Shown: positions 9,979-64,000 of the stretch, one piece after another
Numbering within the stretch: position 1 is the first letter of the stretch
Layout: every line of letters begins with the position of its first letter
From: a virus
Direction: 5' to 3' (one strand)
Length of the DNA: 64,000 nt
IMG/VR virus record: IMGVR_UViG_3300022413_000009
Location: 4,827-68,826 of that record
The notes under the pieces: model-generated
Seen by the model: only the letters and a program-made list of their open reading frames with translations
Told to the model about the DNA's origin: nothing
Databases searched by the model: none
Program-made: the position numbers and the translations under genes

Positions 9979-10647
9979 CTAATGCTTCGTGGTGTTGGTG
10001 CCATCGGCATCGTCCATCAGCGCCACAGTCTCGCGGATTAGACGAGCAGCCTCTTCGGCCCCCATTGCAGTACCTTCACCTTTGAGGATGCCTAGGTATT
10101 CAGCCAACCGGTCCACGGCCTTGTCGGCGTCACGCATCTCGATAGACACGTTCTGGCCGTTGTTGTTGTTCGTGATAGAGATTTTCTTGACACGAGCCTT
10201 CTGTTCTTTGGTCAGTTCGCTGGGGCCTTTCGCCACCAGGACGCGGGGGCCTTGTTCGTCCATCACGACTTGGCCAGCCTCATTTCTGATTATCTCGCCG
10301 TCATTATCGGTTAGGGGACGGACGAATTCTTCTTTGACGTAGTCATAAGCGTCGCCCTCGGTCCAGAGCCTCCACTTCGCGATTATACTTTCTTCGGCGA
10401 GCCCCTCTTTCCGTAGAAGGTCGCGGAGCAATTTCTGAATCGCTTTTCGAATAGGCGCCTGAGTGAGTAAATGAGGGCCGTAAGCCTCACCCGTAGATTC
10501 GGCGAAGCCGGCCTTCTCCGCAGCCGCCTTGGCGTCACCGCCATTATGCACGTAGAAACGAACGAATTTGTGGCGTTTGAGTGTCCAGCGAAAACCTGGC
10601 TCGTTGACATCTTCTACAGATAGAAAATTTTGTGCGTTTTCTTCCAC
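9979..10647 (-). CDS. terS: Putative terminase small subunit
   Basis: 222 aa immediately upstream of terL, basic/helical N-terminus consistent with DNA-binding; no database confirmation. Confidence 0.45.
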   Translation of the reverse strand: MEENAQNFLSVEDVNEPGFRWTLKRHKFVRFYVHNGGDAKAAAEKAGFAESTGEAYGPHLLTQAPIRKAIQKLLRDLLRKEGLAEESIIAKWRLWTEGDAYDYVKEEFVRPLTDNDGEIIRNEAGQVVMDEQGPRVLVAKGPSELTKEQKARVKKISITNNNNGQNVSIEMRDADKAVDRLAEYLGILKGEGTAMGAEEAARLIRETVALMDDADGTNTTKH

Positions 10648-10699
10648 GACCTTGATTCCCTCATAGGTAGCCTTCCCGACATGAGCGAACTATAACATC

Positions 10700-11046
10700 G
10701 ACGACAGGGAAATGCGGCTTGAGCAGAGCCGTAGGGTCTATATACGCACAAGAAGCCAAAAATTTTTTTTTATTTTTTGATTTTGGCGGCTCGCGATGTA
10801 AAGTCTCACCCTGTTTTCGACATGATTTAGGGTGCGTAGGGTCGATAATCTGCTATGAAATCAGGCTCAACATCTTATCATCATTATTGTGTAGGGTCGT
10901 AGGGTCGATATCAGCGTTTTTCAATTTATTTTCAAACCCAACAGAGTTTTTGAAAAACACCCTACAACCCTAACCCATTGATTGTATCATAATACATCGA
11001 GAAGTTCAATTCCGTAGGGCCTACACCACCCTACACCACCCTACGG
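10700..11046. repeat. AT-rich intergenic module with about 8 GTAGGGT iterons (direct and inverted), copy 1 of 2
   Basis: Contains GTAGGGTCGTAGGGTCGAT, its inverted partner CACCCTACAACCCTAACCCATTGATT, CCCTACACCACCCTACACCACCCTACGG and a poly(A)/poly(T) tract; near-identical blocks recur at 58540-58860. Confidence 0.7.
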
Positions 11047-11406
11047 CTAGAAAAGTCGTGACAGGTGGTTTTCGTAGATCGAGATATCCTTAATCCTACC
11101 TCTTTCCATGTCGCCCAAGTCGTAAGTCGCCACCCCCAGTTCCCGGGCGATGGTACTCAGCTTGAGGCCAAGGCGATGTCGAACAATGCTCAAGAACACC
11201 CAGTCAGGTATGTCAATCTTTCGCATCGTCTGGAACTCCCTTTCAATTAGAATATTGACAGGCAGTTTACCATTCTCCATCTTTGAGATAGCTGTCTGGT
11301 GGAAGCCGTAATCACGAGCGATTTGCGCCTGTGACTTGAGCTCTTTGCGCCTCCAGGCGAACATCATCTCATTCTGTTTGAGCGTAAGGCGGCGTCGCAG
11401 CTTCAT
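11047..11406 (-). CDS. XRE-family helix-turn-helix transcriptional regulator (two HTH units)
   Basis: 119 aa with two HTH-like segments SQAQIARDYGFHQTAISKMENGK and LSTIARELGVATYDLGDMERG. Confidence 0.55.
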   Translation of the reverse strand: MKLRRRLTLKQNEMMFAWRRKELKSQAQIARDYGFHQTAISKMENGKLPVNILIEREFQTMRKIDIPDWVFLSIVRHRLGLKLSTIARELGVATYDLGDMERGRIKDISIYENHLSRLF

Positions 11407-11635
11407 CTCTTAGTTTCTCCTCTAACCTATCCCAGAACGGTTTAGCCATCTTGGTGAAATACTCACCATCCGGTGGTCCGTTCAACGGCTTCCATTCTAC
11501 TACTGGAATCTCCTCCCCACTAATCTTCAAGTCTCCCAACCACAATGTGCCATCATCCATGACACCTAAAATCAAGTCCTGCCTAATCTCTCCGATAGAT
11601 TGAGTCAGCGTTGAAACCTGGACGACTTGCCTCAT
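11369..11635 (-). CDS. Hypothetical protein
   Basis: 88 aa ORF in early-gene series. Confidence 0.3.
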   Translation of the reverse strand: MRQVVQVSTLTQSIGEIRQDLILGVMDDGTLWLGDLKISGEEIPVVEWKPLNGPPDGEYFTKMAKPFWDRLEEKLRDEAATPPYAQTE

Positions 11636-22340: not shown

Positions 22341-22440
22341 TTTCTAAGTGTGGGCAAACCCTGCCCTCATATTTAATACTACTACCATCGCAGAGAATTG
22401 CAAGAGAACGAGCGTTTCAATACTAGAAATGTGCGGTCGG
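22341..22440 (-). promoter_or_regulatory. Conserved promoter/operator-like element (copy 1)
   Basis: Minus-sense TGTGTCCGACCGCACA box, then CTTGCAAT (-35-like), then GGTAGTAGTATTAAATATGAGG (-10-like), then AAGGAAG RBS and ATG; same architecture at 24130, 25530, 49250 and partially 44190. Confidence 0.55.
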
Positions 22441-23121
22441 ACACACTTTGATGGACTTCCGAGACATAGATTTGATGCGGTTGCTGTCACCGGCAAGGAT
22501 ATCCTCCTCAAATTCCACCTCCGGATCGAAGAACCATTTCATGCCGTTCCGGTAGAAGGGTCCCATGATTCCGTAGTTCATGAGCGTGATGGTTGGATCG
22601 AACATGAAGACGAACGACGGGTCCGAGATGGTTGCCCACCTCTTAATCTGGTGAGGTTGGATGGTCCCCATGTGGCTGGCATTGCCGAGCCTCTGCAGGG
22701 ATTCCTGAGCTAGGTATTGGAACGTCTCCAGCTCGTCTCGGAAGGCGAGTGTCGCCTCCTCCATGCTCATGTCATCGTCGATTCCGACGTTGTCAGCAAA
22801 GCCGAGTTCGTACCTCTTGCCTCGGGTAGCCTGTTCCAGGAAGTCCTCATCTGGTAGCAAACGGTCCTCATCTACTTCGACCTCAAGCAAGAGAAAGTCC
22901 TCTTTGCCGACTGTCGCGCTCATAGCGAAGTACAGGGCATAGGAATTGGTTAGGTAGACGAGGTCATCCCTGCTTGGAAATTCCTCCCAGTTCCCGGGTC
23001 GATCCCCGCGAGGCTGAATCCCCTTCTCCAGGATATCGCCTAGCTTGGCGGCGGTTGTCCCGTGGTAGAGTTTCATTCCGGTTCCTCTGTCACGTCTAGG
23101 ACCTTGTGGGTGTCGAGGCAA
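22423..23121 (-). CDS. Tpt1/KptA-like (RNA 2'-phosphotransferase / ADP-ribosyltransferase fold) protein
   Basis: Internal start MKLYHGTTAAKLGDILEKGIQPRG parallels the KptA NAD-binding lobe FLYHGTASRFLDEILKQGLKP with the H-G-T motif; the N-terminal 15 aa of the track ORF are probably not translated. Confidence 0.45.
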   Translation of the reverse strand: MPRHPQGPRRDRGTGMKLYHGTTAAKLGDILEKGIQPRGDRPGNWEEFPSRDDLVYLTNSYALYFAMSATVGKEDFLLLEVEVDEDRLLPDEDFLEQATRGKRYELGFADNVGIDDDMSMEEATLAFRDELETFQYLAQESLQRLGNASHMGTIQPHQIKRWATISDPSFVFMFDPTITLMNYGIMGPFYRNGMKWFFDPEVEFEEDILAGDSNRIKSMSRKSIKVCPTAHF

Positions 23122-24129: not shown

Positions 24130-24240
24130 TTTCTATGGTAATGCGTGTCTTCATATTTAATACTAACACCGTGACTGGTCATTGCAAGGAATTGAAGCAT
24201 TTAATACAAGAAACGTGCGGTCGGACACACTTTATTCAGC
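24130..24240 (-). promoter_or_regulatory. Conserved promoter/operator-like element (copy 2)
   Basis: CTTCATATTTAATACTAACACCGTGACTGGTCATTGCAAGG ... GTGCGGTCGGACACACTTT on plus strand. Confidence 0.5.
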
Positions 24241-24744: not shown

Positions 24745-25533
24745 TCACCAGTATCGGCGGTCGTAATGGTCTTCCAAATCGTCCGCCGACTCAAGCTCAC
24801 CGGCGTACCCTATGTATCTCCTATTCGAAGCGACTGTCGCTTTCCACTCAGCATCGTCGATGTCCCAGGCGGAGTTCAACCAACGGATGTTTCCGTTTTC
24901 CCGAATCATAATTCGGTAGTCGCCGTTCTTGCCTTCCTTGTGAATGATGAAGACGACATCCGAGAGCGAGCTCTGCGGTTCCTTCTCCAAGACCTTCACC
25001 GGGATTTTTCTTTCGCCCTTCGCGAGGACGAGATAGATATTCTGGATCCGATGCAGGCGTCCAGCTGCCCAGTCAACTGTCTCTTTTCCGTCCCAGGCAG
25101 CGACATGGCCGTCGACACTGAAGATGTATCTCTTCGTGTCTCCTCTCAGGCGCAAATCCTTCTCCACGGCTGCAATCGTTTTCAACCCGTCGAAGTTGGG
25201 TGTCACCTTCTGCAGGCGAAGCCCTACCTTTTCGAATGCGTCCAAGAACATGTAGTGGTGCGGTCCTCTCTTCGGCTTGCGGCCTTCAGCTTCTAAGACA
25301 GCGTGGGCGCGGTCATAGTCGCCATCGAGCATGACTGCGAGAGCGCGGACGGTACAATCGTTGTCCTCTCCCTTCATGCGCGATGCTTTCGCGATTGTGT
25401 TCTTGATGTCTGACATGGCTGTGTCCCTTTCTAGCTTTCTACATTCGGGATTTTTTGTTGCGTCGGATGAATCCCTTAACACCCTGGGGTTTCGCCTACT
25501 GCGCCGGTAATTAGAGTACCTTTGCCTGTTCAA
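24745..25533 (-). CDS. Hypothetical protein
   Basis: 262 aa ORF. Confidence 0.35.
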   Translation of the reverse strand: MNRQRYSNYRRSRRNPRVLRDSSDATKNPECRKLERDTAMSDIKNTIAKASRMKGEDNDCTVRALAVMLDGDYDRAHAVLEAEGRKPKRGPHHYMFLDAFEKVGLRLQKVTPNFDGLKTIAAVEKDLRLRGDTKRYIFSVDGHVAAWDGKETVDWAAGRLHRIQNIYLVLAKGERKIPVKVLEKEPQSSLSDVVFIIHKEGKNGDYRIMIRENGNIRWLNSAWDIDDAEWKATVASNRRYIGYAGELESADDLEDHYDRRYW

Positions 25534-25625
25534 CTAACCCTCATATTCAATACTACTACCGTGACTGATCATTGCAAGTGTTCATTCATGTTTAATACTA
25601 AACTGTGCGGTCGGACACACTTTAT
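25530..25625 (-). promoter_or_regulatory. Conserved promoter/operator-like element (copy 3)
   Basis: CCTCATATTCAATACTACTACCGTGACTGATCATTGCAAGTG ... TGTGCGGTCGGACACACTTT. Confidence 0.5.
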
Positions 25626-35215: not shown

Positions 35216-35685
35216 GTGATCAAGTCCTGCCCACGATTCGGCTTCGTGGTCCCCGCATTCGACCAGTGCCGAATGCCGATTGATTGATGGTCAGTGATGC
35301 GCCATTTGAGAACCAGAGTGTAACCGAGTTCGTCACCAATAAATCTTGAAGTGTGGATCCAGTACGCCGCGCCAATATGCACCTCAGTCGGGAGTGCCTT
35401 CCACCATGTCTCAGGTTTCTGTGCCACGAATGCGACAAAGACATTGCCGTTATTGTCGAGCTTCAGATCGTTGTAATCCTGCTCACTGATGAGAGCGATG
35501 CCAAGGTCAAACTTCTCCTGGTAGACTCTCTCAGTCAGTACGAGTCCCACGCCACCGTTGAATCCGCTGGCAAACGTCGGACCGATTTCAACTTCTGTCG
35601 CCTTCGCTTTATAGGCGAAGAACAGAAGCAGAACGATCAAGATTGCGATGACAGCGCCTTTCGGATTATCAAATAATTTGTTCAT
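35197..35685 (-). CDS. Outer-membrane beta-barrel protein (PagL/OmpA-like small barrel)
   Basis: 162 aa; signal peptide, alternating amphipathic strands, C-terminal ...ITWGWRF ending in Phe (OMP sorting signature). Confidence 0.45.
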   Translation of the reverse strand: MNKLFDNPKGAVIAILIVLLLFFAYKAKATEVEIGPTFASGFNGGVGLVLTERVYQEKFDLGIALISEQDYNDLKLDNNGNVFVAFVAQKPETWWKALPTEVHIGAAYWIHTSRFIGDELGYTLVLKWRITDHQSIGIRHWSNAGTTKPNRGQDLITWGWRF

Positions 35686-36608
35686 AGGTCAAATATCCCT
35701 TTTTGGACTGGAAGATGGCTGGTGTCACCGATGCTGCGGTACAGTTCCGTCATCATCATGCGGTTCCACAATGCCCTGGATTCGAATATTGTACCCAATT
35801 CCTCCAGGGTAAACTTCCATTTCTTCATCAAATCATACAGGTAATCTCGCTCAGGATCGGCAAGTGTCGTGACGTGGGCGTTCTTATCATGCCTTGTTGG
35901 TGAGGTCTCACTGACGCCAACGATGCGGAAATTCGTGTCAATGAAGATCCCACCGTAGGCCGCTATCAGGATCCAGGTTGCGGAGTCAACCGACAACCAC
36001 GGCACTTTCGTCATCATTTGGGTTCCGGTTGCTGCGAGACCATGCGTTCGGATGCCCTCTGGTAGCAGATGATGCGTTTCTGCTGCCCACCTGGCGCGAT
36101 ATGTTTCCCCAAGGTCATTCCTGGGCGAGATGCAGACGTATCCGCCCGACATATCGCAAACCTCCTTCAGGCGAGCCTCATCTTCGTTCTGGTGGAACAC
36201 CGGAAGGACCCGATTTGGGAACTTTTCGTTCAGTACCGCATAGTTCTCATCGGAGATTTTGATGGCTTCAGCGAGTTGTTCTTCGGTCGCTGTCTCTCCT
36301 GGTTTTCCCGGGATTTTGTCCAAGTTGATGAACCACACCTTATTCAAATCACCGATGATGTCCACCAATTCAGCGTAGACATCGACCAGGTGCGGCAGGT
36401 GGACTTCCTCGCCTTTCGTCCAGGCAGTGAAGGCGCCCGAATCGAGCATGATTTCGTAATTGTCGTCAATCTTGGCGACAATAGGGCTTGTCGCTTTGGC
36501 ATATTTCACGTAGGAGCCGTGACAGGAGAAAAGCCGGTACCGCGGAGTACCGAGGCGCTCATCTGCCTCGATGACCCCTTTACCGACTCCCGAATAGTAG
36601 ATATGCAT
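35682..36608 (-). CDS. dpdA: DpdA / tRNA-guanine-transglycosylase-like 7-deazaguanine DNA transglycosylase
   Basis: 308 aa; IMLDSGAFTAW matches TGT catalytic ILTDSGGFQVF region; embedded in preQ0/preQ1 biosynthesis gene cluster. Confidence 0.6.
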   Translation of the reverse strand: MHIYYSGVGKGVIEADERLGTPRYRLFSCHGSYVKYAKATSPIVAKIDDNYEIMLDSGAFTAWTKGEEVHLPHLVDVYAELVDIIGDLNKVWFINLDKIPGKPGETATEEQLAEAIKISDENYAVLNEKFPNRVLPVFHQNEDEARLKEVCDMSGGYVCISPRNDLGETYRARWAAETHHLLPEGIRTHGLAATGTQMMTKVPWLSVDSATWILIAAYGGIFIDTNFRIVGVSETSPTRHDKNAHVTTLADPERDYLYDLMKKWKFTLEELGTIFESRALWNRMMMTELYRSIGDTSHLPVQKGIFDL

Positions 36609-39350: not shown

Positions 39351-39908
39351 TTACCGTACTTGGTTCAAAAACTCCTCTTTGGCACTATTATCGCTCTTGA
39401 ATACGCCTCTTAGGGCTGTGGTGATGGTTTCGTGTCCCTGCTGACAGACTCCACGGCTTTCCATGCACAGGTGCCGACAGCATAGCCTGACCGCCACTCC
39501 TCTTGGCGACAGAACATCGTATATGGATTCTGCGATTTGATCGGTGAGTCGTTCTTGGACTTGGAGTCTGCGGGAAAAGCAATCCACGACTCGATTGAGT
39601 TTGGAAAGTCCGCAGATTTTCCCATCCGGGATATAGGCGACTGAGGCACGACCAAAAATAGCAGCAAGATGGTGCTCGCAATGGCTATATACCGGAATAT
39701 CACGGACCAACACCATTTGGTCGTAGTTTTCACCGCCATCTTCGAACTCCTTCATTATGTCCTTAGGATCTTCGCCGTAGCCCTTGGTCCAGAACTCCCA
39801 CGCGCGAGACACGCGCAAAGGGGTCTCAACCAATCCGCCTCGTTCCGGGTCCTCACCGATTCCTTTGAGCAGGTATCCGGCAGCGGCTTCTAGGTCACCA
39901 TTGCTCAT
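39351..39908 (-). CDS. folE: GTP cyclohydrolase I (FolE)
   Basis: Start trimmed to [33 protein letters not shown]; catalytic [13 protein letters not shown] motif. Confidence 0.7.
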
Positions 39909-40621
39909 GCTGCGGCCACCACGCTCTTCCAGAACTCTCTGTCTTCGTACTCGAGTGGATCTACCCACCCCATGTCGTTGAATGACTCCAGTCGTTCGAC
40001 ACAGGCGCCGCACTTGCCGCAGGCCTCTCTTCGACCGTTATAGCAGGTCCAGCTTTGACCATAATCCTCAGCGGTGAGACCAAGATCTTTGCCCACGTCA
40101 AGTATGTCGCCTTTGGTGAGTGTAATGAACGGTGTCAGCAATTTGACAGGTTGGTAGTTCGCAATCATCGTCGCTCCATTTAGAGCGTCGAAGAACTCTT
40201 CTCGGCAGTCGGGGTAGATATCGTGATCCCCTGCATGGGCGCCGCAGAACACGGCACCAATATCTAGGCTCACCGCGTATCCGACTGCTAGGCTGAGCAT
40301 TATCATATTTCGATTCGGGACGACTGTCGCCTTCATGTTTTCTTCAGAGTAGTGTCCCTCCGGGACCTCAATGCCGCTGGTCAATGAGCTGCCTTGGAGC
40401 AGAGTGTTGATTGATCGAATGTCAACCACCTTGTGCGGAATTCGTTTCACCGCGCAAAATCGGTGAGCGTACTCAAGCTCTTTGGCATGACGTTGCCCGT
40501 AATTGAACGACAAGGCATGCACCTCGTCACAGGTTTCGAGAGCGTGATTGAGAAGCGTGAACGAGTCCATGCCTCCCGAGTAGATGACTACCGACTTCAT
40601 AATGATACCTCCGCTGAACAT
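39905..40621 (-). CDS. queC: 7-cyano-7-deazaguanine synthase QueC
   Basis: 238 aa; PP-loop VIYSGGMDS and C-terminal zinc cluster [11 protein letters not shown]. Confidence 0.75.
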
Positions 40622-41470: not shown

Positions 41471-41831
41471 CGGAATGGAACTCTCCTATCAAACAATGTA
41501 GGAACTCGTGCCCAAGGGCATCCATGTCGGGGTCTCCGAGTATCTGTTCTGGCCGCCTAGCGTAGACAGCACAGAGCGAGGAGTTCGTCTCCTCATCATA
41601 ATAGAACGAGCTCCAGGCTTCACCGCCACGTTCACTGTCGAGCCAATTGATGTGAACGGTTGTCGAGTCAACCTCCCATTCCTGTTCGACTTCTTCACCA
41701 TAAGGATCGTAGCAGTAGAGCGGAGTCTCCTCAGCCTGTGCTTCAACCGGCTTGAAATTCAGCGTTACCCCTACTCCGAGAAAAAAGGTCACAATGACCA
41801 TCGATGCGACGACAATATGTATCTTCAACAT
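41463..41831 (-). CDS. Small secreted HExxH zinc-metallopeptidase-like protein
   Basis: 122 aa; signal/TM N-terminus and HEFLHCLIGEFH near C-terminus. Confidence 0.35.
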   Translation of the reverse strand: MLKIHIVVASMVIVTFFLGVGVTLNFKPVEAQAEETPLYCYDPYGEEVEQEWEVDSTTVHINWLDSERGGEAWSSFYYDEETNSSLCAVYARRPEQILGDPDMDALGHEFLHCLIGEFHSDD

Positions 41832-42553
41832 TATGGTAACCCCAGGTGCTTGTGAAGTTGATAGCTCATCCGATACCCGTACTGTTTCACAAGGCTGATG
41901 GCGTGTAGCTCGTTCTGCCGGTTCTCATCCTTGTCATACGAGTCTAGTGGCTGGACATACACCGCCTTACCGTTTGGAGGACGTGCCAGACGAATGTGCT
42001 TCTGCTTGGTTTGGGTACTGAGAATTGGCAAGCCATCCTCTTTGTCGGTATCGTCGAAGCTCACGATATACTTGTAACAGGACGACAGAGATTCAATTGT
42101 CTTATTGATTTTGGCCGTCTTCGGTGAGCAGACAATAGACAGATTGCCGTTCGCGAAAGCCAGCCTCGCCCAGTCATCGTTGAAGGCATCAATCCAGCGA
42201 ATGCCGTTCGTTTCAATCTGTACCCGATGCCCCTGCTCCAAGAGTTTGAAGCACAGGACCGAGATGTCTTGTCGAAAAGGCTCGCCGCCAGTGAGCACTA
42301 CCAAGTCAGTTTTGATGTGCTCATTGGCGGCGATAATCGCCAGAAGTAGTTCATCCATATGGGGGTGCCATGTGGACGATTCGAAGTCAGTGTCGCACCA
42401 GAAGCATTTGAGATTGCATCCGCCGAGGCGAACGAAGATAGCGCCTTCGCCAGCGAAAGGTCCCTCACCTTGTATGGTAGGGAAAACTTCTTGGATCCAG
42501 AGTTGATTTGGTGAGGATAGGTCCTGTTTTCTTATAGGGTTTTCGCCGAACAT
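41831..42553 (-). CDS. queE: 7-carboxy-7-deazaguanine synthase QueE (radical SAM)
   Basis: 240 aa; TIQGEGPFAGEGAIFVRLGGCNLKCFWCDT cluster-binding motif. Confidence 0.75.
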   Translation of the reverse strand: MFGENPIRKQDLSSPNQLWIQEVFPTIQGEGPFAGEGAIFVRLGGCNLKCFWCDTDFESSTWHPHMDELLLAIIAANEHIKTDLVVLTGGEPFRQDISVLCFKLLEQGHRVQIETNGIRWIDAFNDDWARLAFANGNLSIVCSPKTAKINKTIESLSSCYKYIVSFDDTDKEDGLPILSTQTKQKHIRLARPPNGKAVYVQPLDSYDKDENRQNELHAISLVKQYGYRMSYQLHKHLGLP

Positions 42554-44189: not shown

Positions 44190-44255
44190 TCTCCTTGCTT
44201 TCTATGAATGCTCAGATGTAATACTAACATCGTCACTCACGATTGCAAGAACTCA
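44190..44255 (-). promoter_or_regulatory. Conserved promoter-like element (partial copy)
   Basis: GCTCAGATGTAATACTAACATCGTCACTCACGATTGCAAGAAC shares the AATACTA...ATTGCAAG core. Confidence 0.4.
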
Positions 44256-45475: not shown

Positions 45476-45823
45476 CTACCGCCGCTTCTGCAAACGGTTA
45501 TAGAGCAGGATTATTCTCATCCCTATAGAAAATCTAGGTTCGTACCTGACCCCGCTACGCAGACGATTGAGATATGACTGTGAACATCCCACGATTTGCG
45601 CAACTCTCGAGCTCGAAATCTTGTGCTTCAATTGCAGGGTCCTGAGGATCTTCTGAAAATCAACCTCAGCCGGGTGTGTAGTCTCCGAAATTGAGCGTTG
45701 GGAGGTTTTTGCTCTGTTGATATTCGCGCCCGGGGATGTCAGACCAGACAAGTGACTCTGGTACTTCATAGAGTTGGTCGCAATTTCTGCAGACATCGAT
45801 GTCATCGAATCTTCCTTCCTCAT
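45476..45823 (-). CDS. Helix-turn-helix DNA-binding protein
   Basis: 115 aa; SSRVAQIVGCSQSYLNRLRSG HTH; overlaps 3' end of radical SAM gene by about 158 nt in another frame. Confidence 0.4.
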   Translation of the reverse strand: MRKEDSMTSMSAEIATNSMKYQSHLSGLTSPGANINRAKTSQRSISETTHPAEVDFQKILRTLQLKHKISSSRVAQIVGCSQSYLNRLRSGVRYEPRFSIGMRIILLYNRLQKRR

Positions 45824-46646
45824 GCGCTAACCTGAGTTCACGATACGCAGGGGAGTCGACAATTTCTGCGATGGAATTTGAATCGAGATGTCCAAGCACT
45901 CCTCGGGAATCTTGCCCAAGCACCATACAGCACGCGACAACCGCCGCACGGTGGCTGCCAAGGCCTCCAGCCCGCACTTGCAAAAGGGGAGCGTTGGGTC
46001 GGCCACAAGATCTTTTTTCACCGCGCCGATGATAGTTGATGTCGATCTTATCTGAATCTGCCCAATTGTGCATGAGCCAAATTTCACTGTGAGCTCCAGT
46101 GAATCGGCCCCAGTTCTTTCTATACTGTAATACTTCATATTCGACCTCTTCCTGATTTATGATTAGGTGATTGATGTGCATCTCACTCAGCGATCCTTTC
46201 GCCATGCTGACGAAACGCCGAGCGTTCTCTCTCACCAAATCATAATCCCCGCCTTCCATCCACTTCGTGTACGTCGGTTTGTCATAACCGATGCAAGACA
46301 GGCGTAGGATGTCAATGCCTGCCTCTATCAATTCTCCGCTCAGTTTCTCCGTCAGCTTCTTACCGTTGGTAAACGATATGCAGGTGAGGCCGCGATCCTT
46401 GACTGCCTTGACGAACTTCGGAAAGTCTCGGTTGAGCGTCGGCTCGCCGCTGCCATGGAGTGTAACCGTCTGGAGGCCATACTGCATCCCATCGTCGACA
46501 ATCTTTTCGAATACATCAAAAGGGAGCTTTCTGAGAAACTCTCTCTCGCGTCCTTGTGACTGGGGACACATCTGGCACTTATAGTTACAGCCACCATTCA
46601 ACTCTAAGTCAAGGACATGTATCTGCAGGTCTTCAGGAGTCGGCAC
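45666..46646 (-). CDS. Radical SAM superfamily enzyme
   Basis: 326 aa; CNYKCQMC (Cx3Cx2C) near N-terminus, GSGEPTLN SAM-binding region. Confidence 0.6.
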   Translation of the reverse strand: MPTPEDLQIHVLDLELNGGCNYKCQMCPQSQGREREFLRKLPFDVFEKIVDDGMQYGLQTVTLHGSGEPTLNRDFPKFVKAVKDRGLTCISFTNGKKLTEKLSGELIEAGIDILRLSCIGYDKPTYTKWMEGGDYDLVRENARRFVSMAKGSLSEMHINHLIINQEEVEYEVLQYRKNWGRFTGAHSEIWLMHNWADSDKIDINYHRRGEKRSCGRPNAPLLQVRAGGLGSHRAAVVACCMVLGQDSRGVLGHLDSNSIAEIVDSPAYRELRLAHEEGRFDDIDVCRNCDQLYEVPESLVWSDIPGREYQQSKNLPTLNFGDYTPG

Positions 46647-48927: not shown

Positions 48928-49249
48928 GATATCCTCCCATAAGGTCCATCGGCCGCCATGTCTTCATACATCTGTTCTTTCATTGCGGCTTCGTGCTGAC
49001 GTAGAGCTTTCCTCTGCTTCCGTGTGAGAGGCTTGATTCCATCGCGGCCTTGCTTGATGCAATGCTCGCGATATTTCAGTCTTGGGATAATCTTAGGCAT
49101 GGCTTTCTCTCCTTTCTACTTGTTGAACTTGATGCGGTACCAGCGAATAATGCGATGCGATTCCATTCCCAAGACAACCATCCAGATGATGCTGGTGGCT
49201 CCTAAAAATTTGACGATTTCGAATAACATGGCTGATCCCTTTCTAGCTT

Positions 49250-49345
49250 TCTAAGTGTGTCCTCATATTTAATACTACTACCGACACAGAGAAATGCAAG
49301 AGAATGACGCATTCATTTGTATGAATCAGGGAAAAGTGTGCGGTC
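49250..49345 (-). promoter_or_regulatory. Conserved promoter/operator-like element (copy 4)
   Basis: CCTCATATTTAATACTACTACCGACACAGAGAAATGCAAGAG ... GTGTGCGGTCGGACACAATTT. Confidence 0.5.
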
Positions 49346-49887: not shown

Positions 49888-49962
49888 TGGTGGATGCGGT
49901 AGGTCTCGAACCTACGTCTTTCCCGTTAAGAGCGGTGACTCTGCCAGCTGAGTTACGCATCC
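49888..49962 (-). tRNA. tRNA-Lys (anticodon CUU), tentative
   Basis: T-arm GTAGG-TCTCGAA-CCTAC, acceptor GGATGCG, loop CUCUUAA. Confidence 0.45.
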
Positions 49963-49967
49963 GAAAT

Positions 49968-50042
49968 TGGAGCCCCATCTAGGATTCGAACCCAGAAGCT
50001 AATCAGTTTCGAAGACTGACACCCGTCCACCGGGCATGAGGC
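49968..50042 (-). tRNA. tRNA-Arg (anticodon UCG)
   Basis: T-arm CTAGG-ATTCGAA-CCCAG, anticodon stem TCAGT/ACTGA with loop CUUCGAA. Confidence 0.5.
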
Positions 50043-50043
50043 T

Positions 50044-50120
50044 TGGTTGATGCCGTGGGAGTTGAACCCACCTCATAGCAGGATATAAGCCTGCGTGTGA
50101 CGACCGGCCACCCGGCATCT
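50044..50120 (-). tRNA. tRNA with anticodon UAU (Ile, AUA-reading)
   Basis: T-arm GTGGG-AGTTGAA-CCCAC, perfect anticodon stem GCAGG/CCTGC with loop CUUAUAU. Confidence 0.5.
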
Positions 50121-50126
50121 ATTGTT

Positions 50127-50201
50127 TGGTCCTTCCCCGTGGTATCGAACCACGCTCCACGGTGCTTCAAACCGTTGCTAATCCATCTCAGCTAGAGAAG
50201 G
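50127..50201 (-). tRNA. tRNA-Phe (anticodon GAA)
   Basis: T-arm CGTGG-TATCGAA-CCACG, anticodon stem ACGGT/ACCGT, loop UUGAAGC. Confidence 0.5.
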
Positions 50202-50202
50202 T

Positions 50203-50280
50203 TGGTGCGCCCCCTCGGCTTCGAACCGAGAAACTACTCGTTTTGAGCGAGCAAGGTATGCCTATTCCCATCAGGGACGC
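50203..50280 (-). tRNA. tRNA with anticodon CAA (Leu codon UUG) but short variable loop
   Basis: T-arm CTCGG-CTTCGAA-CCGAG, loop CUCAAAA, acceptor GCGTCCC/GGGGCGC; 5-nt variable region unlike type II Leu tRNAs. Confidence 0.45.
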
Positions 50281-50288
50281 TTAGAATT

Positions 50289-50361
50289 TGGACCCCCCAC
50301 GAGGACTCGAACCTCGAAATCAGAGCTTAGAACACTCCTACCGCTCCTGTCGGATGGAGGG
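50289..50361 (-). tRNA. tRNA-like gene, anticodon loop possibly UUCUAAG (anticodon CUA, amber-suppressor type); unresolved
   Basis: Acceptor CCCTCCA/TGGGGGG fully paired with CCA, T-arm CGAGG-TTCGAGT-CCTCG; anticodon stem only 3-4 bp in my fold. Confidence 0.35.
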
Positions 50362-50415
50362 ACGATGTGCTTTCAAAAGCACGGTAACCAGGTTAAGGTG
50401 CTTTCAAAAGCAAAT

Positions 50416-50493
50416 TGGAGCCACAGCTCGGAAGCGCGCCGAGTTCCCCTGTTTACAAGACAGGACATCATCTAGATAAATGTTTCGTGTGGC
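50416..50493 (-). tRNA. tRNA-Thr (anticodon UGU), atypical T-loop
   Basis: Anticodon stem CCTGT/ACAGG loop CUUGUAA; T-stem CTCGG/CCGAG with unusual loop. Confidence 0.4.
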
Positions 50494-50499
50494 ATTGTT

Positions 50500-50574
50500 T
50501 GGTCGTCCGAGAAGGAATTGCACCTTCATCTCCTCGCGTATCAGACGGGGGCTCTACTGTTAAGCTACCGGACT
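50500..50574 (-). tRNA. tRNA-like gene, anticodon unresolved
   Basis: TGG + T-arm GAAGG-AATTGCA-CCTTC and D-arm-like GCTTAACAGTAGAGC; anticodon stem not confidently placed. Confidence 0.3.
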
Positions 50575-50575
50575 C

Positions 50576-50647
50576 TGGTAGCGGCACCGGGTAACGCTCC
50601 CGGCTGTCCTGGGTTATGAGCCCTGGTTGGTCGCTTGACCTACCGCA
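50576..50647 (-). tRNA. tRNA-Met/Ile2-type (anticodon CAU)
   Basis: T-stem CCGGG/CCCGG, anticodon loop CUCAUAA. Confidence 0.45.
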
Positions 50648-50653
50648 TTAAAT

Positions 50654-50730
50654 TGGTACCCCAGGCGGGACTCGAACCCGCAAACTACAGTTTCTAAGAC
50701 TGGCGGCTATGCCTATTCGCCTACCGGGGC
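50654..50730 (-). tRNA. tRNA with anticodon UAG (Leu codon CUA) but short variable loop
   Basis: Clean cloverleaf: acceptor GCCCCGG, D-stem GGCG/CGCC, loop CUUAGAA, T-arm GCGGG-TTCGAGT-CCCGC, CCA encoded. Confidence 0.5.
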
Positions 50731-50732
50731 AT

Positions 50733-50807
50733 TGGAGATGTGAGACGGATTCGAACCGTCGTGTGTCTGGTTTGCAAGCAGAAGCCTATCCTCTCGGCCA
50801 TCACATC
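50733..50807 (-). tRNA. tRNA-Cys (anticodon GCA)
   Basis: Acceptor GATGTGA/TCACATC, T-arm GACGG-TTCGAAT-CCGTC, loop UUGCAAA. Confidence 0.55.
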
Positions 50808-50812
50808 TATGT

Positions 50813-50888
50813 TGGGGTGTCTCCTAGGACTTGCACCTAGTTCATCCGGGATCACAACCCAGGCTTCACGTTTCAAAGTTTGAGACAC
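50813..50888 (-). tRNA. tRNA-His (anticodon GUG)
   Basis: Acceptor GTGTCTC/GAGACAC, anticodon stem CTGGG/CCCGG loop UUGUGAU, T-arm CTAGG/CCTAG. Confidence 0.5.
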
Positions 50889-50894
50889 ATTGTT

Positions 50895-50972
50895 TGGAGC
50901 ATCCGACGGGACTCGAACCCGCATTGTTCTGGGTGAAAACCAGACTGCCTATTCCATTTAGCTGACAGATGC
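50895..50972 (-). tRNA. tRNA-Glu (anticodon UUC)
   Basis: T-arm ACGGG-TTCGAGT-CCCGT, anticodon stem TCTGG/CCAGA loop UUUUCAC. Confidence 0.55.
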
Positions 50973-50973
50973 T

Positions 50974-51052
50974 TGGTACTCCTGAACGGACTCGAACCGT
51001 CATTGTTCTGGATGAGAACCAGACCGCCTATTCCAATTAGCAGGACAGGAGC
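50974..51052 (-). tRNA. tRNA-Glu (anticodon CUC)
   Basis: Near-duplicate of previous tRNA with loop UUCUCAU. Confidence 0.5.
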
Positions 51053-51061
51053 GTCGTTGTT

Positions 51062-51134
51062 TGGTGGAGGTGCGCGGAATCGAACCCCGCCCATCGGCTT
51101 GCAAGGCCGTCGGTGGCGCCCACGCACCACCCCC
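51062..51134 (-). tRNA. tRNA-Ala (anticodon UGC)
   Basis: Acceptor GGGGGTG/CACCTCC, anticodon stem CGGC/GCCG loop CUUGCAA. Confidence 0.5.
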
Positions 51135-51135
51135 T

Positions 51136-51209
51136 TGGTACTCAGTGATGGAATCGAACCATCGTCTCCGATTTGTAAGAACGGCGCTAATCCCCTCAGC
51201 TAACCGAGC
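51136..51209 (-). tRNA. tRNA-Val (anticodon UAC)
   Basis: T-arm GATGG-TTCGATT-CCATC, loop CUUACAA, acceptor GCTCGGT/ACTGAGT. Confidence 0.5.
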
Positions 51210-51217
51210 ATTTTGTT

Positions 51218-51293
51218 TGGCGCCCGCGATGAGAATTGAACTCACCTACATTCGCTCGACAGGCGATCCACGTCACCAGACGCGCCCACGGGC
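51218..51293 (-). tRNA. tRNA-Asp (anticodon GUC)
   Basis: Acceptor GCCCGTG/CGCGGGC, anticodon stem TTCGC/GCGAT loop CUGUCGA. Confidence 0.55.
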
Positions 51294-51300
51294 TTGAATT

Positions 51301-51377
51301 TGGTCTGCGCGGTAGGATTCGAACCTACGACATGATGGTTCCAGGCCACCAACTCTACCAGACTGAGCTACGCACAG
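51301..51377 (-). tRNA. tRNA, anticodon region ambiguous (best guess UGG, Pro)
   Basis: T-arm GTAGG-TTCGAAT-CCTAC, D-arm GCTCAGTCTGGTAGAGT; anticodon loop parse gives CCUGGAA with C33. Confidence 0.4.
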
Positions 51378-51380
51378 ATT

Positions 51381-51455
51381 TGGAGCGAGGTGCGGGAATT
51401 GAACCCGCCTATACTGGGTGGAAGCCAGTTTTATCACCAGAACTTTCTACCCCGC
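51381..51455 (-). tRNA. tRNA-Gly (anticodon UCC)
   Basis: T-arm GCGGG-TTCAATT-CCCGC, anticodon stem ACTGG/CCAGT loop CUUCCAC. Confidence 0.55.
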
Positions 51456-51456
51456 T

Positions 51457-51533
51457 TGGCCCCAATTCTAGGACTCGAACCTAGCTCGCACAGATTAACA
51501 GTCTGCCGTCGTCACCCGGACGACTCAACTGGG
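51457..51533 (-). tRNA. tRNA-Asn (anticodon GUU)
   Basis: T-arm CTAGG-TTCGAGT-CCTAG, anticodon stem ACAGA/TCTGC loop CUGUUAA. Confidence 0.55.
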
Positions 51534-51549
51534 GTAATACCAAAAAAAT

Positions 51550-51636
51550 TGGTGGATGTCCTAGGAATCGAACCTAGAATGCCTAAGAAGGTACAGGGTT
51601 ACAGCCTGCTCACGATCCATACGCGACTAGACATCC
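51550..51636 (-). tRNA. tRNA-Tyr (anticodon GUA), long variable arm
   Basis: Acceptor GGATGTC/GACATCC perfect, T-arm CTAGG-TTCGATT-CCTAG, anticodon stem GCAGG/CCTGT loop CUGUAAC, 15-nt variable arm as in bacterial tRNA-Tyr. Confidence 0.55.
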
Positions 51637-56958: not shown

Positions 56959-58614
56959 TCACAACCATGTGTCGACATCGTCCCTTGTGATCGTGTCAGC
57001 AAGGCTCTTCTTAGCCCGCAATGCGTTGATAATTCTAGTGTCGATGGTTCCGAGAGTTTCAAGATCGAAATAGGTGACATTGTTCTTCTGTCCAATGCGA
57101 TGCGCTCGATCCTCAGACTGGAGTCTGTTCTCGAGACTGAAGTCATTCGAATAATAGGCCACATATGACGCGGCAGTAAGGGTGAGACCGAATCCACCAG
57201 ACTGCTGTTGACCAATAAAGAAGCGGCACCGGTCATCGTTCTGGAACCTGTCAATCGCAAGGTCCCGATCCTCCTGACCCACCGCGCCATAGTAATTGAC
57301 GACCGTGTCACTGTCGTATTCTTGAGCCAGCATTCGTGTCAGGTTTTCTATCTCGGGAACGAAGCGAGCCCAGATAATCAGCTTGCCGCCCTCTTCGGAC
57401 AGGATGTACGAATCTTCGACGATGTCCTTGATGGCCTTCGCCCTCGGTAGATTCGAGAAATTTGGGATGACGCAGGCTTCGGCTCGTCCTCCGGCCTCGT
57501 TTGGAATGAATCCACCCAGTACCTGTTGCAGACGAATCATCTTCGTGAGCACGTTCGCCACTGTGACGTCATCTGCTTGTGCGAGCTCTAGCTTCGCGTC
57601 CTGCAGAACTTTGTTATAAATTCTGCCTTGGTCCTCCTGCATACCAACGTATCGGCGCTCGTAGAGCTTGTCTGGCAAGTCCAGGCATTCCTTCTTAGTC
57701 ACGCGGTAGGAGACTGCGTCGATGTTTGTCACAAGCTCGTCGAGGTTCTTGTATCCGGTGCATACTTCATACTCTTTCTCCGTCTTCCAGTTCTTCTCTG
57801 TCTGCCACTCGGCGTAGCGATGCTTGAAGGAATGGAAATTCGTGTAGCCTAGGTATCCCGGTCCCAAGAACTTGAACTGAGCGTAGAGATCCATCGGCGA
57901 ATTGGTGACTGGTGTGCCTGTCATAATCGCACGGGAGTGAGCTCGCTTCCCGAGCGTGAGGATTCTTTTGGTGCGGCGTGATCCAGGTGTCTTAATTTTC
58001 GTCGATTCATCCATGATCCAGTAGACGCTGAAGCTGTTTAGGATTTTAGCGATCTCTGTCCCGAACTTCATCGGACCACCTCGCTTCGTTCGCCAGAACC
58101 TCTCAGCGACCCCGAATGCGTCGACGTTGATAACCAGGATCCTGAGTCCGGTGAACTTCGGATCCCAGAGCCTATCGTAATCTTTCCAGTCAGCCGCCTT
58201 CATGTACGAGGACCAGACACAGACTCTCCGTTCAACCCAGTCTGGAAGGTGAACAGGGATTTCCCTGAGGACCCAGTTACGCTGAACTCCATTCGGGGCC
58301 ACTATGAACAGGAAATTGATTTCACCTTTGGCGTACTTCCAGGCCGCGACATCGATTCCGACTTTCGTTTTGCCGGTACCCATCTCCATGAGGTAGGCGA
58401 AATCTTCCAAGTCGCGCGAACGTTCGAACGCGGTGTCCTGGTGGTCATATGGGACTGTTTTGAACTGGAAGTCTTGCGGAGTGATGATGCGCGACAACTT
58501 TCTCTCCTTTCTGAATTCGCAGTCTAACACGACGTAGGGTCTAGTTACGCACAAGAAGCCAGAAAAAAATAAATTTTTTTGGGTTCCCGGGTCACGCGAG
58601 GGCAAAGAACCCAC
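56959..58614 (-). CDS. SNF2-family (SF2) DNA helicase / translocase
   Basis: 551 aa; motif I MEMGTGKT, DExx box WIMDESTKIK, C-terminal motif VI QSEDRAHRIGQ. Confidence 0.75.
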   Translation of the reverse strand: MGSLPSRDPGTQKNLFFSGFLCVTRPYVVLDCEFRKERKLSRIITPQDFQFKTVPYDHQDTAFERSRDLEDFAYLMEMGTGKTKVGIDVAAWKYAKGEINFLFIVAPNGVQRNWVLREIPVHLPDWVERRVCVWSSYMKAADWKDYDRLWDPKFTGLRILVINVDAFGVAERFWRTKRGGPMKFGTEIAKILNSFSVYWIMDESTKIKTPGSRRTKRILTLGKRAHSRAIMTGTPVTNSPMDLYAQFKFLGPGYLGYTNFHSFKHRYAEWQTEKNWKTEKEYEVCTGYKNLDELVTNIDAVSYRVTKKECLDLPDKLYERRYVGMQEDQGRIYNKVLQDAKLELAQADDVTVANVLTKMIRLQQVLGGFIPNEAGGRAEACVIPNFSNLPRAKAIKDIVEDSYILSEEGGKLIIWARFVPEIENLTRMLAQEYDSDTVVNYYGAVGQEDRDLAIDRFQNDDRCRFFIGQQQSGGFGLTLTAASYVAYYSNDFSLENRLQSEDRAHRIGQKNNVTYFDLETLGTIDTRIINALRAKKSLADTITRDDVDTWL

Positions 58615-58860
58615 CGTAGAGATGACACGGTGTGTAGGGTCGTAGGGTCGATCTGGTACTGTTTGACTACTTTTCCAAACACCCCCGCATCATTTGAAAA
58701 ACACCCTACGACCCTAACCCATTGATTTTTTCATACTATGTAGATTTAATTCAAGTCGGGTGACCCTACGCCACCCTACAGCCTTGAGAAAAGGACCGCT
58801 GACCCCCTTCACGGCAGGCGAGAAGCCACCAAAACGCCTACCAGGGACCAGCGGCCAAAC
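58540..58860. repeat. AT-rich intergenic module with GTAGGGT iterons, copy 2 of 2
   Basis: Shares GTAGGGTCTAGTTACGCACAAGAAGCCAGAAAAAAA...TTTTTTT, GTGTAGGGTCGTAGGGTCGAT, TTGAAAAACACCCTACGACCCTAACCCATTGATT and CCCTACGCCACCCTACAGCC with the 10.7-11.05 kb module. Confidence 0.7.
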
Positions 58861-63278: not shown

Positions 63279-63540
63279 CTCCCATTCCGTTTGGTTTGTA
63301 TGCCTGATAAGCGATATACATTTTCGTGAACATGCCGCCGAGAGCTGTGAGCAATGCCACCGGGAAGGCAGTGATGAATGCTAGGTTAGCTGGTTCGATT
63401 GACGATAGATCGAGAGCCGTGTACCACTGCCAAGATTCAGCGAAAAGCCAAACATACGAGAGGAAGAAGACCGTTAGATAGAATCTAGGAAACACCCGTA
63501 GGGCATTGATTCTCTTCGCTAGTATTATCCACTTGTCCAT
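63268..63540 (-). CDS. Membrane protein (holin/antiholin candidate)
   Basis: 90 aa with 2-3 hydrophobic helices. Confidence 0.35.
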   Translation of the reverse strand: MDKWIILAKRINALRVFPRFYLTVFFLSYVWLFAESWQWYTALDLSSIEPANLAFITAFPVALLTALGGMFTKMYIAYQAYKPNGMGDAG

Positions 63541-63549
63541 GCGTCTCCC

Positions 63550-64000
63550 TCAAAACGCGGCCCTTCTTCTCCATCCAAGACGGAATACACCCAAGGAGGG
63601 TTTCTTCTCAATCAAGGACTCGTAAAAATTGCCCTGGCGCTCGCGTATTACGGTCACCAGTTCATAGTCCTTAGCTAGAAAAGAGTTTACAGCGGCAACG
63701 GTATTGATGCCCACGATACCGTCAACAACAAGATCTCCACCGAGCTTGTTTATTGATCTCTGTACTATCTTCCAGGTTTGTCTGGATCCCATATTCACTG
63801 CCATGTCGAAGATTTTGTTTGAAAGCAGCCCTGACATGATCGCATCACATTTGTTCGGGATCCAAAATCCGGTGCGATAGAGCTCTATTGCATCTTCCCG
63901 AGAAGCATTCCTAATATCATCGATATCCACGTCGCCGTCGCCGTCCAAATCGCCATCCGGAAGGCCATCTCTATTGAGGTCCCCAATGCTTTTGAGATAC
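63550..64000 (-). CDS. Endolysin-like protein, 3' portion (gene continues beyond window end): calcium-binding dockerin-like repeats + peptidoglycan-binding domain
   Basis: Track start is a TTG; reading frame stays open upstream to the window end (…YLKSIGDLNRDGLPDGDLDGDGDVDIDD). DxDxDG repeats, then LVVDGIVGINTVAAVNSF matching PG_binding_1. Confidence 0.45.
   Translation of the reverse strand, partial: YLKSIGDLNRDGLPDGDLDGDGDVDIDDIRNASREDAIELYRTGFWIPNKCDAIMSGLLSNKIFDMAVNMGSRQTWKIVQRSINKLGGDLVVDGIVGINTVAAVNSFLAKDYELVTVIRERQGNFYESLIEKKPSLGVFRLGWRRRAAF

Follow-up and report, generated by a model that had tools for sequence, protein, structure and literature searches.

In lambda cosB and P1 pac, clustered short repeats are combined with bent DNA and integration host factor (IHF). 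The C1 operators of P1 are dispersed, short, asymmetric sites of one phage repressor. In the omega system of plasmid pSM19035 and in ParR/parC of plasmid R1, units of 7-11 bp, direct and inverted, lie around promoters at several loci and are bound cooperatively by one small protein. Paired signals at the heads of long operons are known from lambda (nutL/nutR) and HK022 (putL/putR). SPP1 has two origins, oriL and oriR, in which repeats bound by gp38 accompany an A+T-rich unwinding element, and one of the two lies in the late region (PMC6316719). This second origin may stall forks and trigger concatemer synthesis; SPP1 gp1, the terS product, acts through pacL to repress its own promoter, which overlaps the repeats that it binds (PMC6316719). 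In T4, oriF and oriG consist of a regulated, phage-factor-dependent middle-mode promoter with an A+T-rich unwinding element downstream (PMC3016281). The stoperators of cluster A mycobacteriophages are short asymmetric sites at several places in the genome, bound by one phage repressor, a monomeric two-domain protein (PMC9283540). In this study, we analyzed a stretch of 64,000 nucleotides from an uncultured phage (IMG/VR record IMGVR_UViG_3300022413_000009, positions 4,827 to 68,826; hereafter the window), in which two dispersed non-coding modules, A and B, carry arrays of the heptamer GTAGGGT. Module A lies upstream of the terminase gene terS and module B upstream of an SNF2-family helicase gene. 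The modules are most likely co-evolving control regions that may serve as a gene switch, a replication origin, or both.

Two homologous heptamer modules and their anatomy

GTAGGGT was found 15 times in the window, compared with 3.03 +/- 1.55 (maximum 7) in dinucleotide-preserving shuffles of the 64-kb sequence, and 13 of the 15 copies were confined to positions 10731-11044 and 58534-58779. The looser pattern TAGGGT added two sites in A and one in B. When TTAGGGT variants and one degenerate GTAGGCC were included, A held 9-10 sites and B held 7, close to the figure of about eight per block given in a preliminary description of this DNA. All plausible genes of the window are on the minus strand; therefore, the modules are read in reverse complement. 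Their extents are as follows.

10729..11046, minus strand: module A, non-coding, from the XRE gene to terS; homologous to module B.
58532..58781, minus strand: module B, non-coding, from open reading frame (ORF) ORF196, an unassigned frame of 196 aa, to the SNF2 helicase gene; homologous to module A; identical in the strain contigs L175 and L089.

The two modules align collinearly with 75% identity and share blocks of 22/22, 29/31, and 42/46 nt. A repeat finder returned three shared blocks, families D8, D13, and D14. An insert of 57 bp, containing an additional repeat pair, is present in A only. The local alignment score of A against B was 105, versus 19 for shuffles (z = 39), far beyond chance matches. 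Two intergenic blocks of about 300 bp with long near-identical segments had been described, and all three quoted segments were recovered. Since the genes flanking A and B differ, the pair is a true dispersed repeat rather than an assembly duplication, as had been argued. The metagenome contig L089 begins at window position 58720, within the shared 46-nt block, as would be expected of an assembler at a true repeat. Across both modules and their surroundings, the strain contigs L175 and L178-L180 match the window at 100% identity, with differences only at 63.4-64 kb; therefore, they provide no footprinting information.

No third heptamer cluster was detected, either in the 64-kb window or past its right end in a further 9 kb that encodes tail and lysis functions, and no conserved small ORF was found within either module. 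DNA searches with both regions against 50,697 phage records yielded no match, and neither did an exact-pattern scan of IMG/VR for the double heptamer. The sole match of a gapped-pattern scan of JGI metagenomes was an unrelated high-GC contig, L174, where tandem GGTAGGGT repeats stand opposite an inverted ACCCTA array (1810-1950; long hairpin). This is a chance pattern match and not a relative.

Each module has the same order of elements in transcription orientation. It starts with two or three GTAGGTG-type heptamers, 10 bp apart, centered at about -47, -57 (and -67) from the predicted start. A -35 element, an extended -10 element, an IHF-consensus site, and a TTAGGGT-n-GTAGGGT pair at about +2 to +17 come next. 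About 50 poorly conserved bases then lead to an inverted pair, ACCCTACGACCCTAC, some 70 bp downstream; A alone has a second such pair. The module ends with a variable stretch, a pure A/T tract of 18-27 bp, the conserved 15-mer GGCTTCTTGTGCGTA, a last inverted heptamer, and the ribosome-binding region. The individual elements are listed below.

11018..11044, minus strand: upstream heptamers U1-U3 of A, GTAGGGTGGTGTAGGGTGGTGTAGGCC, at 10-bp spacing, with centers at about -67, -57, and -47 from the predicted start.
10981..11009, minus strand: sigma70-like promoter of A (TTGAAC, 17 nt, TG-n-TACAAT), 9/12 matches plus the TG, directed toward terS.
10971..10983, minus strand: IHF site of A, AATCAATGGGTTA, an exact match to the consensus WATCAANNNNTTR, overlapping -10 to +1.
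10959..10972, minus strand: D1 pair of A, TTAGGGTTGTAGGGT, spaced by 8 bp and closely following the -10 element.
10891..10905, plus strand: D2 pair of A, GTAGGGTCGTAGGGT, equal to ACCCTACGACCCTAC on the transcribed strand and inverted relative to D1.
10828..10842, plus strand: extra pair found in A only, TAGGGTGCGTAGGGT, in the 57-bp insert absent from B.
10758..10784, no strand: A/T tract of A, the most AT-rich 30-mer of the window.
10731..10757, plus strand: gene-proximal conserved block of A, GTAGGGT (S site), 5 nt, and TACGCACAAGAAGCC.
58763..58779, minus strand: upstream heptamers of B, GTAGGGTGGCGTAGGGT, 10-bp spacing, at about -57 and -47.
58725..58754, minus strand: weaker promoter-like element of B (TTGAAT, 18 nt, TG-n-AAAAAT), at the homologous place and under the scan threshold.
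58715..58727, minus strand: IHF-consensus site of B, AATCAATGGGTTA.
58703..58716, minus strand: D1 pair of B, TTAGGGTCGTAGGGT.
58634..58648, plus strand: D2 pair of B, GTAGGGTCGTAGGGT, inverted relative to D1.
58563..58580, no strand: A/T tract of B.
58534..58560, plus strand: gene-proximal conserved block of B, GTAGGGT (S site) and TACGCACAAGAAGCC.

The IHF consensus has six matches in the window versus 1.9 expected, two of which are the homologous site of A and B. In a ranking of all 30-mers of the window by AT content, the A/T tracts of the two modules take the first three places. The A-run and T-run of each copy, with flanking GCC and GGC, form an imperfect palindrome, GCCAAAA...TTTTGGC, whose fold is weak (z = -2.6 and -0.8) and whose 3' arm belongs to the conserved GGCTTCTTGTGCG block. 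The claim that repeats flank the A/T tract stands in part: direct and inverted repeats do surround it, but asymmetrically, with one heptamer on the gene-proximal side and all others on the distal side.

Module A is directly 5' of terS, which is followed by terL and the portal gene. Module B is directly 5' of the SNF2 helicase gene, followed by genes for Pam3 gp32/33/34-like proteins, an AEP primase, a UvrD helicase, and 17 tRNA genes. Judged from gene content, A heads the packaging and structural block and B the replication block of a genome that exceeds the window.

Pairing and concerted divergence in related phages

Homologs of terL and SNF2 were abundant in metagenomes, and both gaps were recovered for four related genomes, r1-r4. 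terL relatives in IMG/VR were found by a profile scan. The corresponding SNF2 profile scan of IMG/VR returned distant loci only (39-46% identity), none of them on the same contig as the terL loci. The four genomes and their identities to the window are as follows.

r1: terL 81%, SNF2 79% (loci L001 and L088).
r2: terL 59%, SNF2 54% (loci L091 and L090).
r3: terL 62%, SNF2 49% (loci L173 and L172).
r4: terL 60%, SNF2 50% (loci L262 and L261).

The terS-side and SNF2-side gaps were homologous to each other within the same genome in 5/5 genomes, that is, in the window (z = 39), r1-r3 (z = 12.6, 61, and 39), and r4 (80% identity over about 250 bp). All 24 cross-genome comparisons gave z <=6, mostly about 0. 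On these alignments, the pairing is conserved and the sequence is not, and the two copies of any one phage evolve in concert. The conservation of iterons in relatives, which had been proposed as a check on the modules, therefore has two sides: the arrangement is conserved in all four relatives, but the iteron sequence is not.

The relatives differ in how the shared sequence is built. In r1, GTATCGGG is accompanied by GTAGG units and an A-tract. In r2, an 85-bp block is inverted between the two copies. The SNF2-side module of r2 is flanked by divergently transcribed genes and contains outward-facing copies of a single element, the layout expected of a bidirectional promoter region. The gaps of r3 share promoter-like blocks. 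The r4 gaps share long blocks with neither short iterons nor a strong A/T tract. Since the pairing persists in r4 without iterons, the conserved property is a shared 5' control region and not an iteron origin. CCTAY was considered as a common core; it is significantly enriched only in the window and r2 and, having been defined post hoc, is a hint only.

A gap of 240-700 bp upstream of terS, often with its own repeats, was present in all close relatives (terL identity of at least 59%), and distant relatives often had none. The iteron TTCTCGTTTTGTTCTC occurs four to five times upstream of terS in two relatives (L173, 2620-2905; L012, 2800-2900 and 3162). One inverted copy lies beside the terS start in L012, and the iteron is absent from the SNF2-side module of r3 (L172). 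TTCTCGTTTTGTTCTC may thus be a signal specific to terS (pac) and separate from what the two gaps share.

These comparisons bear on whether the modules are selfish or non-functional repeats, either an element resembling a miniature inverted-repeat transposable element, with terminal inverted heptamers that settled in the only tolerant intergenic sites, or a relic duplication under gene conversion. The module ends are inverted (CCGTAGGGT ... ACCCTACGG), the relative L010 has an inverted repeat of about 32 bp at both ends of its gap, and the similarity of A and B exceeds plausible binding sites. Nevertheless, no target-site duplications were found at A or B, the same two syntenic positions are filled in 5/5 genomes with no empty site among close relatives, the copies share blocks rather than full-length identity, and the downstream operons would need a promoter at this place. 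We give this explanation hardly any weight.

Possible roles: promoter-operator pair, replication origins, or packaging sites

The reading we favor, at slightly less than an even chance, is that A and B are paralogous promoter-operator regions bound by a phage-specific protein. Each module would head one of two large delayed transcription units. The unit behind B would comprise the SNF2 helicase, primase, UvrD helicase, and tRNA genes, and the unit behind A would run from terS, terL, portal, and head genes toward the tail and lysis genes. A host-type (sigma70-like) promoter would lie inside each module. A phage-encoded sequence-specific protein would occupy the GTAGGGT heptamers upstream of the -35 element, over the start, in inverted orientation about 70 bp downstream, and once near the ribosome-binding region. 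With the help of the A/T tract and of an IHF-type bend at the start site, these sites would fold into a looped or wrapped complex, and this complex would switch both operons together. The copies would be alike within a genome and diverge quickly between phages because both must fit one protein and can recombine. The anatomy, the gene setting, the conserved pairing, and the concerted divergence are shown directly, whereas we infer from sequence features that the promoters are active and that a protein binds and loops the DNA, as well as the direction of its effect (repression or activation) and its identity.

The promoter of A was the only sigma70-type match within 10400-11500 in a simple scan, and in both copies the predicted binding sites surround the core promoter (heptamers at about -47 and -57, in A also -67, and at +2 to +17). 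Clear intrinsic terminators lie upstream of the module in the relatives L088, L173, L007, and L012. In the window, one possible counterpart adjoins B.

58789..58856, minus strand: terminator-like long hairpin with a UUUUCUC tail, directly past the stop of ORF196 and just upstream of B; -42.6 kcal/mol, z only -1.7; missed by the simple scan.

With these terminators upstream, a promoter would be expected inside the module. Some of the heptamers lie in untranscribed DNA, and both orientations occur; therefore, recognition at the DNA level is indicated. Taken together, the sense orientation, the upstream terminators, the promoter-like element at the same place in both copies, the placement of the heptamers, the layout of r2, and the loss of iterons in r4 make the promoter-operator reading the one that fits best. 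Regulator arrays at module-level promoters were among the functions suggested in the preliminary description. The arrays are real, non-coding, and phage-specific, stand in sense orientation at the heads of the blocks, and have a promoter-like element between repeat pairs, so this option fits best, its function being deduced from the sequence. In the gene-proximal conserved block, inspection by eye led us to reject a sigma54 promoter and a further sigma70 promoter, the spacing being wrong.

The modules resemble the known dispersed operators only to a degree. Stoperators number 20-30 and are scattered singly in small gaps in one orientation relative to transcription, whereas 13 of the 15 module sites lie in two modules, in paired clusters and in both orientations. 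The omega and ParR arrays have 7-10 contiguous units, serve plasmid partition or copy control, and are bound by ribbon-helix-helix proteins; the modules have paired units spread over 250-300 bp. No ribbon-helix-helix or Par genes were seen in the annotation of the window.

Two neighboring proteins are candidates for the binder. It could be the XRE protein with its two helix-turn-helix (HTH) motifs, or terS acting on its own promoter as SPP1 gp1 does. The genes concerned, together with the first gene past B, are as follows.

11047..11406, minus strand: XRE protein of 119 aa, carrying a pair of XRE-type HTH motifs; its gene adjoins A on the upstream side; candidate binder.
9979..10647, minus strand: terS (Terminase_2), the first gene past module A; fast-evolving candidate binder.
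56959..58497, minus strand: SNF2-family helicase, the first gene past B; start set at 58497 from an identical 512-aa database protein.

The XRE family is very rare, with 17 cluster representatives among 1.84 billion proteins. A word-index homolog search with the XRE protein returned only itself, and a PDB sequence search gave just a marginal 434-repressor-like HTH match. An alignment-free AlphaFold model of the protein was poor (pLDDT, the predicted local distance difference test score, 65) and was not used. By its position and motifs, the XRE protein is weakly indicated as the heptamer binder. terS is always adjacent to the terS-side module. It is 41% identical to its r1 ortholog (window 9979-10647 versus L001 1648-2211), compared with 81% for terL and 79% for SNF2, and this fast divergence appears to match the rate at which the repeats diverge.

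Several observations count against the promoter-operator reading. The promoter calls are weak: the element of B misses the threshold of the simple scan, and the -10 hexamer is among the less conserved parts of the block shared by A and B. No terminator was found between the XRE gene and module A. The similarity of A and B spans long blocks (46 nt), beyond the need of binding sites. Co-regulation of a replication operon and a packaging operon is not usual and departs from the common temporal programme. The XRE gene adjoins A in the window and in r1 and is three genes away in r2, but it was undetected near the module in the other relatives. Although r1 has different repeats, the first recognition helix of its XRE protein is the same as in the window. 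A separate extended -10-like element lies nearer terS, outside module A.

10689..10697, minus strand: terS-proximal extended -10-like element, TGTTATAGT, outside the duplicated module; the element and the following leader are conserved with the relative L001.

In this leader (window 10650-10700, minus strand; L001 1600-1650), TGTTATAGT in the window corresponds to TGTTACAAT in L001, followed by G(T/A)CGGGAAG..ATGAGGGA. This leader might act as an additional promoter, specific to terS, or as an operator of translation.

A further reading places the function at the RNA level. The D1-D2 hairpin at the 5' end of both transcripts might be an mRNA stabilizer or a nut/put-like antitermination signal for very long operons, which we consider quite improbable. 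The predicted hairpins have energies of -34.3 kcal/mol in A (z = -5.5) and -40.5 kcal/mol in B (z = -4.9) and begin 2-5 nt past the predicted transcription start. The sole arm difference in A is a U-G wobble, paired on the sense strand only, and the two copies head long co-directional operons, as do lambda nutL/nutR and HK022 putL/putR. By contrast, heptamers are also found upstream of the -35 element, in DNA untranscribed from this promoter, and singly near the ribosome-binding site; a comparable hairpin is not conserved in relatives; the shared block of r2 is inverted between copies; and an Rfam search gave no match.

The A/T tract raises the reading of dual replication origins, which is unlikely but a serious contender and is not mutually exclusive with the regulatory one. 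An origin-binding protein on the heptamers would melt the A/T tract at both loci in the manner of SPP1 gp38, or, as in T4 oriF/oriG, a promoter and an unwinding element would act together with an R-loop-priming transcript. The short direct and inverted repeats stand beside tracts of extreme AT content, B adjoins the helicase, primase, and UvrD genes, and the modules have an IHF-consensus site. Concerted evolution within a genome is expected of initiator/origin specificity. As with oriL and oriR of SPP1, there are exactly two dispersed loci with short repeats and an A+T-rich region, one in the replication region and one in a late intergenic stretch of a genome with all genes on one strand (PMC6316719). 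SPP1 differs in having direct repeats and a known initiator whose gene contains oriL; the modules have heptamer pairs in both orientations around a putative promoter and no recognizable initiator, and both copies are intergenic and head operons. As in T4 oriF/oriG, the candidate promoter precedes an A+T-rich tract (PMC3016281). The T4 origins, however, share little sequence with each other, have one MotA box and no repeat arrays, and have the unwinding element near the promoter rather than 170-230 bp downstream as in the modules.

Several features disfavor origins. The repeat units are 7-8 bp long, in pairs at 8-, 9-, or 10-bp spacing and in both orientations, and are not phased iterons of 17-22 bp. 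About 50 ORFs, many of them with no assigned function, were scanned with Pfam and PHROGs; the matches included helicases, PolA, a clamp, and an AEP primase, and none was to a Rep/O/gp38-like initiator. No DnaA boxes were found in the modules. As 60-bp duplexes, the modules are not less stable than other promoter regions, and several other promoter-like regions are among the least stable windows. GC skew is uniformly negative with no switch, which is uninformative since all genes share one strand. Furthermore, r4 has neither iterons nor a marked A/T tract, yet the pairing is kept. The classical iteron-type origin suggested in the preliminary description is not borne out, given repeats of 7-8 bp in both orientations and the lack of a recognizable initiator gene, DnaA box, or skew switch.

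The position of A raises a further reading, in which the modules are terS recognition sites. The heptamers, the bend, and the A/T tract would form a pac/cosB-type signal; A would be the packaging start, and B a second pac or a site through which terS represses the replication operon. A pac/cos site in the terS copy was also among the functions suggested in the preliminary description. We regard this reading as improbable. A ends about 80 bp upstream of the terS start, at the usual place of pac or cos; the close relatives have repeat-bearing gaps upstream of terS too, and terS is by far the fastest-evolving neighbor (41% versus about 80% for terL and SNF2), which matches the divergence of the repeats. 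Module A shares with SPP1 pac (pacL/pacC/pacR over PL1/PL2), lambda cosB, and P1 pac the short-repeat clusters, the bent or A/T-rich DNA, the IHF-type site, and a location upstream of terS over a putative packaging promoter. Known terS sites are short-repeat clusters with bent DNA and IHF. In SPP1, pacL and pacR overlap PL1 and PL2 (PMC6316719). The known pac and cos sites are single-copy, whereas a second complete array is present here at a distance of about 48 kb, before the replication genes, and four relatives have the same duplication. In addition, the separate iteron TTCTCGTTTTGTTCTC of r3 is found on the terS side only, so the terS signal may differ from the shared blocks.

Genome setting and significance of the paired modules

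Farther along past the tRNA genes of the replication block are radical-SAM, QueC, and DpdA-like genes and the clamp and PolA genes. The 17 tRNA genes form an array at 49888-51636 on the minus strand, directly downstream of the replication genes. The DpdA-like (queuine tRNA-ribosyltransferase family), QueC, and radical-SAM genes are located at 35682-36608, 39905-40621, 41831-42553, and 45666-46646, and their presence suggests that guanine in the phage DNA is replaced by a 7-deazaguanine derivative. Upstream of B are genes for endolysin, exonucleases, a dNMP kinase, and a methyltransferase; on a near-identical 87-kb contig, tail genes precede the endolysin gene. At the endolysin end, window positions 63370-63995 differ from L175 and L176 by about 100 changes within 600 bp, and the sequence past that point diverges, although the strain contigs match the window at 100% wherever else they were compared. 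This pattern marks a sharp boundary of recombination where the lysis and tail regions meet.

Another repeat family, unrelated to the first, has five copies on the minus strand, at the following positions.

22353-22449, 24137-24233, 25527-25623, 44212-44249, and 49249-49345, minus strand: consensus CTTGCAAT, about 12 nt, and GGTAGTAGTATTAAATATGAG, usually with AAAGTGTGTCCGACCGCAC before it; promoter-like.

A small gene follows closely after each copy, and no copy contains GTAGGGT. This family is probably an early promoter class of the phage.

The best terL match, at 54%, came from an uncultured spring virus whose layout differs, and cultured phages reached <=32%. The closest GenBank record, MW202621, was rejected as a comparator since its two-armed genome layout differs. 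terL relatives with 54-57% identity (L190, L193, L195, L197, and L243) lie within large contigs, mostly of Alphaproteobacteria (Methylobacterium, Aliidongia) and also of the betaproteobacterium Pseudoduganella. This context suggests prophage relatives and gives a hint on the host range of the wider group. The phage group itself is large, uncultured, and uncharacterized.

Phage cis-acting repeat arrays at the heads of operons are already known; what is new here is a clade-wide, concertedly evolving, two-copy arrangement that links replication and packaging. The shared blocks of 22-46 bp explain why metagenome assemblies break at both module positions of such phages. If the modules are co-regulated promoter-operators, they would provide a handle on the timing of replication and assembly in uncultured phages. 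They would also represent a fast-evolving pair of protein and DNA specificities, a possible barrier or marker between related phages.

In a further version, the phage clade with SNF2, AEP primase, and 7-deazaguanine genes would keep two co-evolving copies of one nucleoprotein-assembly site, and a single protein, possibly terS, would bind both and couple replication to packaging physically or temporally. The coupling could take the form of an SPP1-like switch to concatemer synthesis, or of replication genes being shut off at the onset of packaging. We attach a fairly low probability to this version; if true, the modules would be a conserved two-site device and more than a promoter pair. Should they be SPP1-like twin origins or coupling sites bound by terS, a mechanism of one Bacillus phage would be extended to a broad environmental clade.

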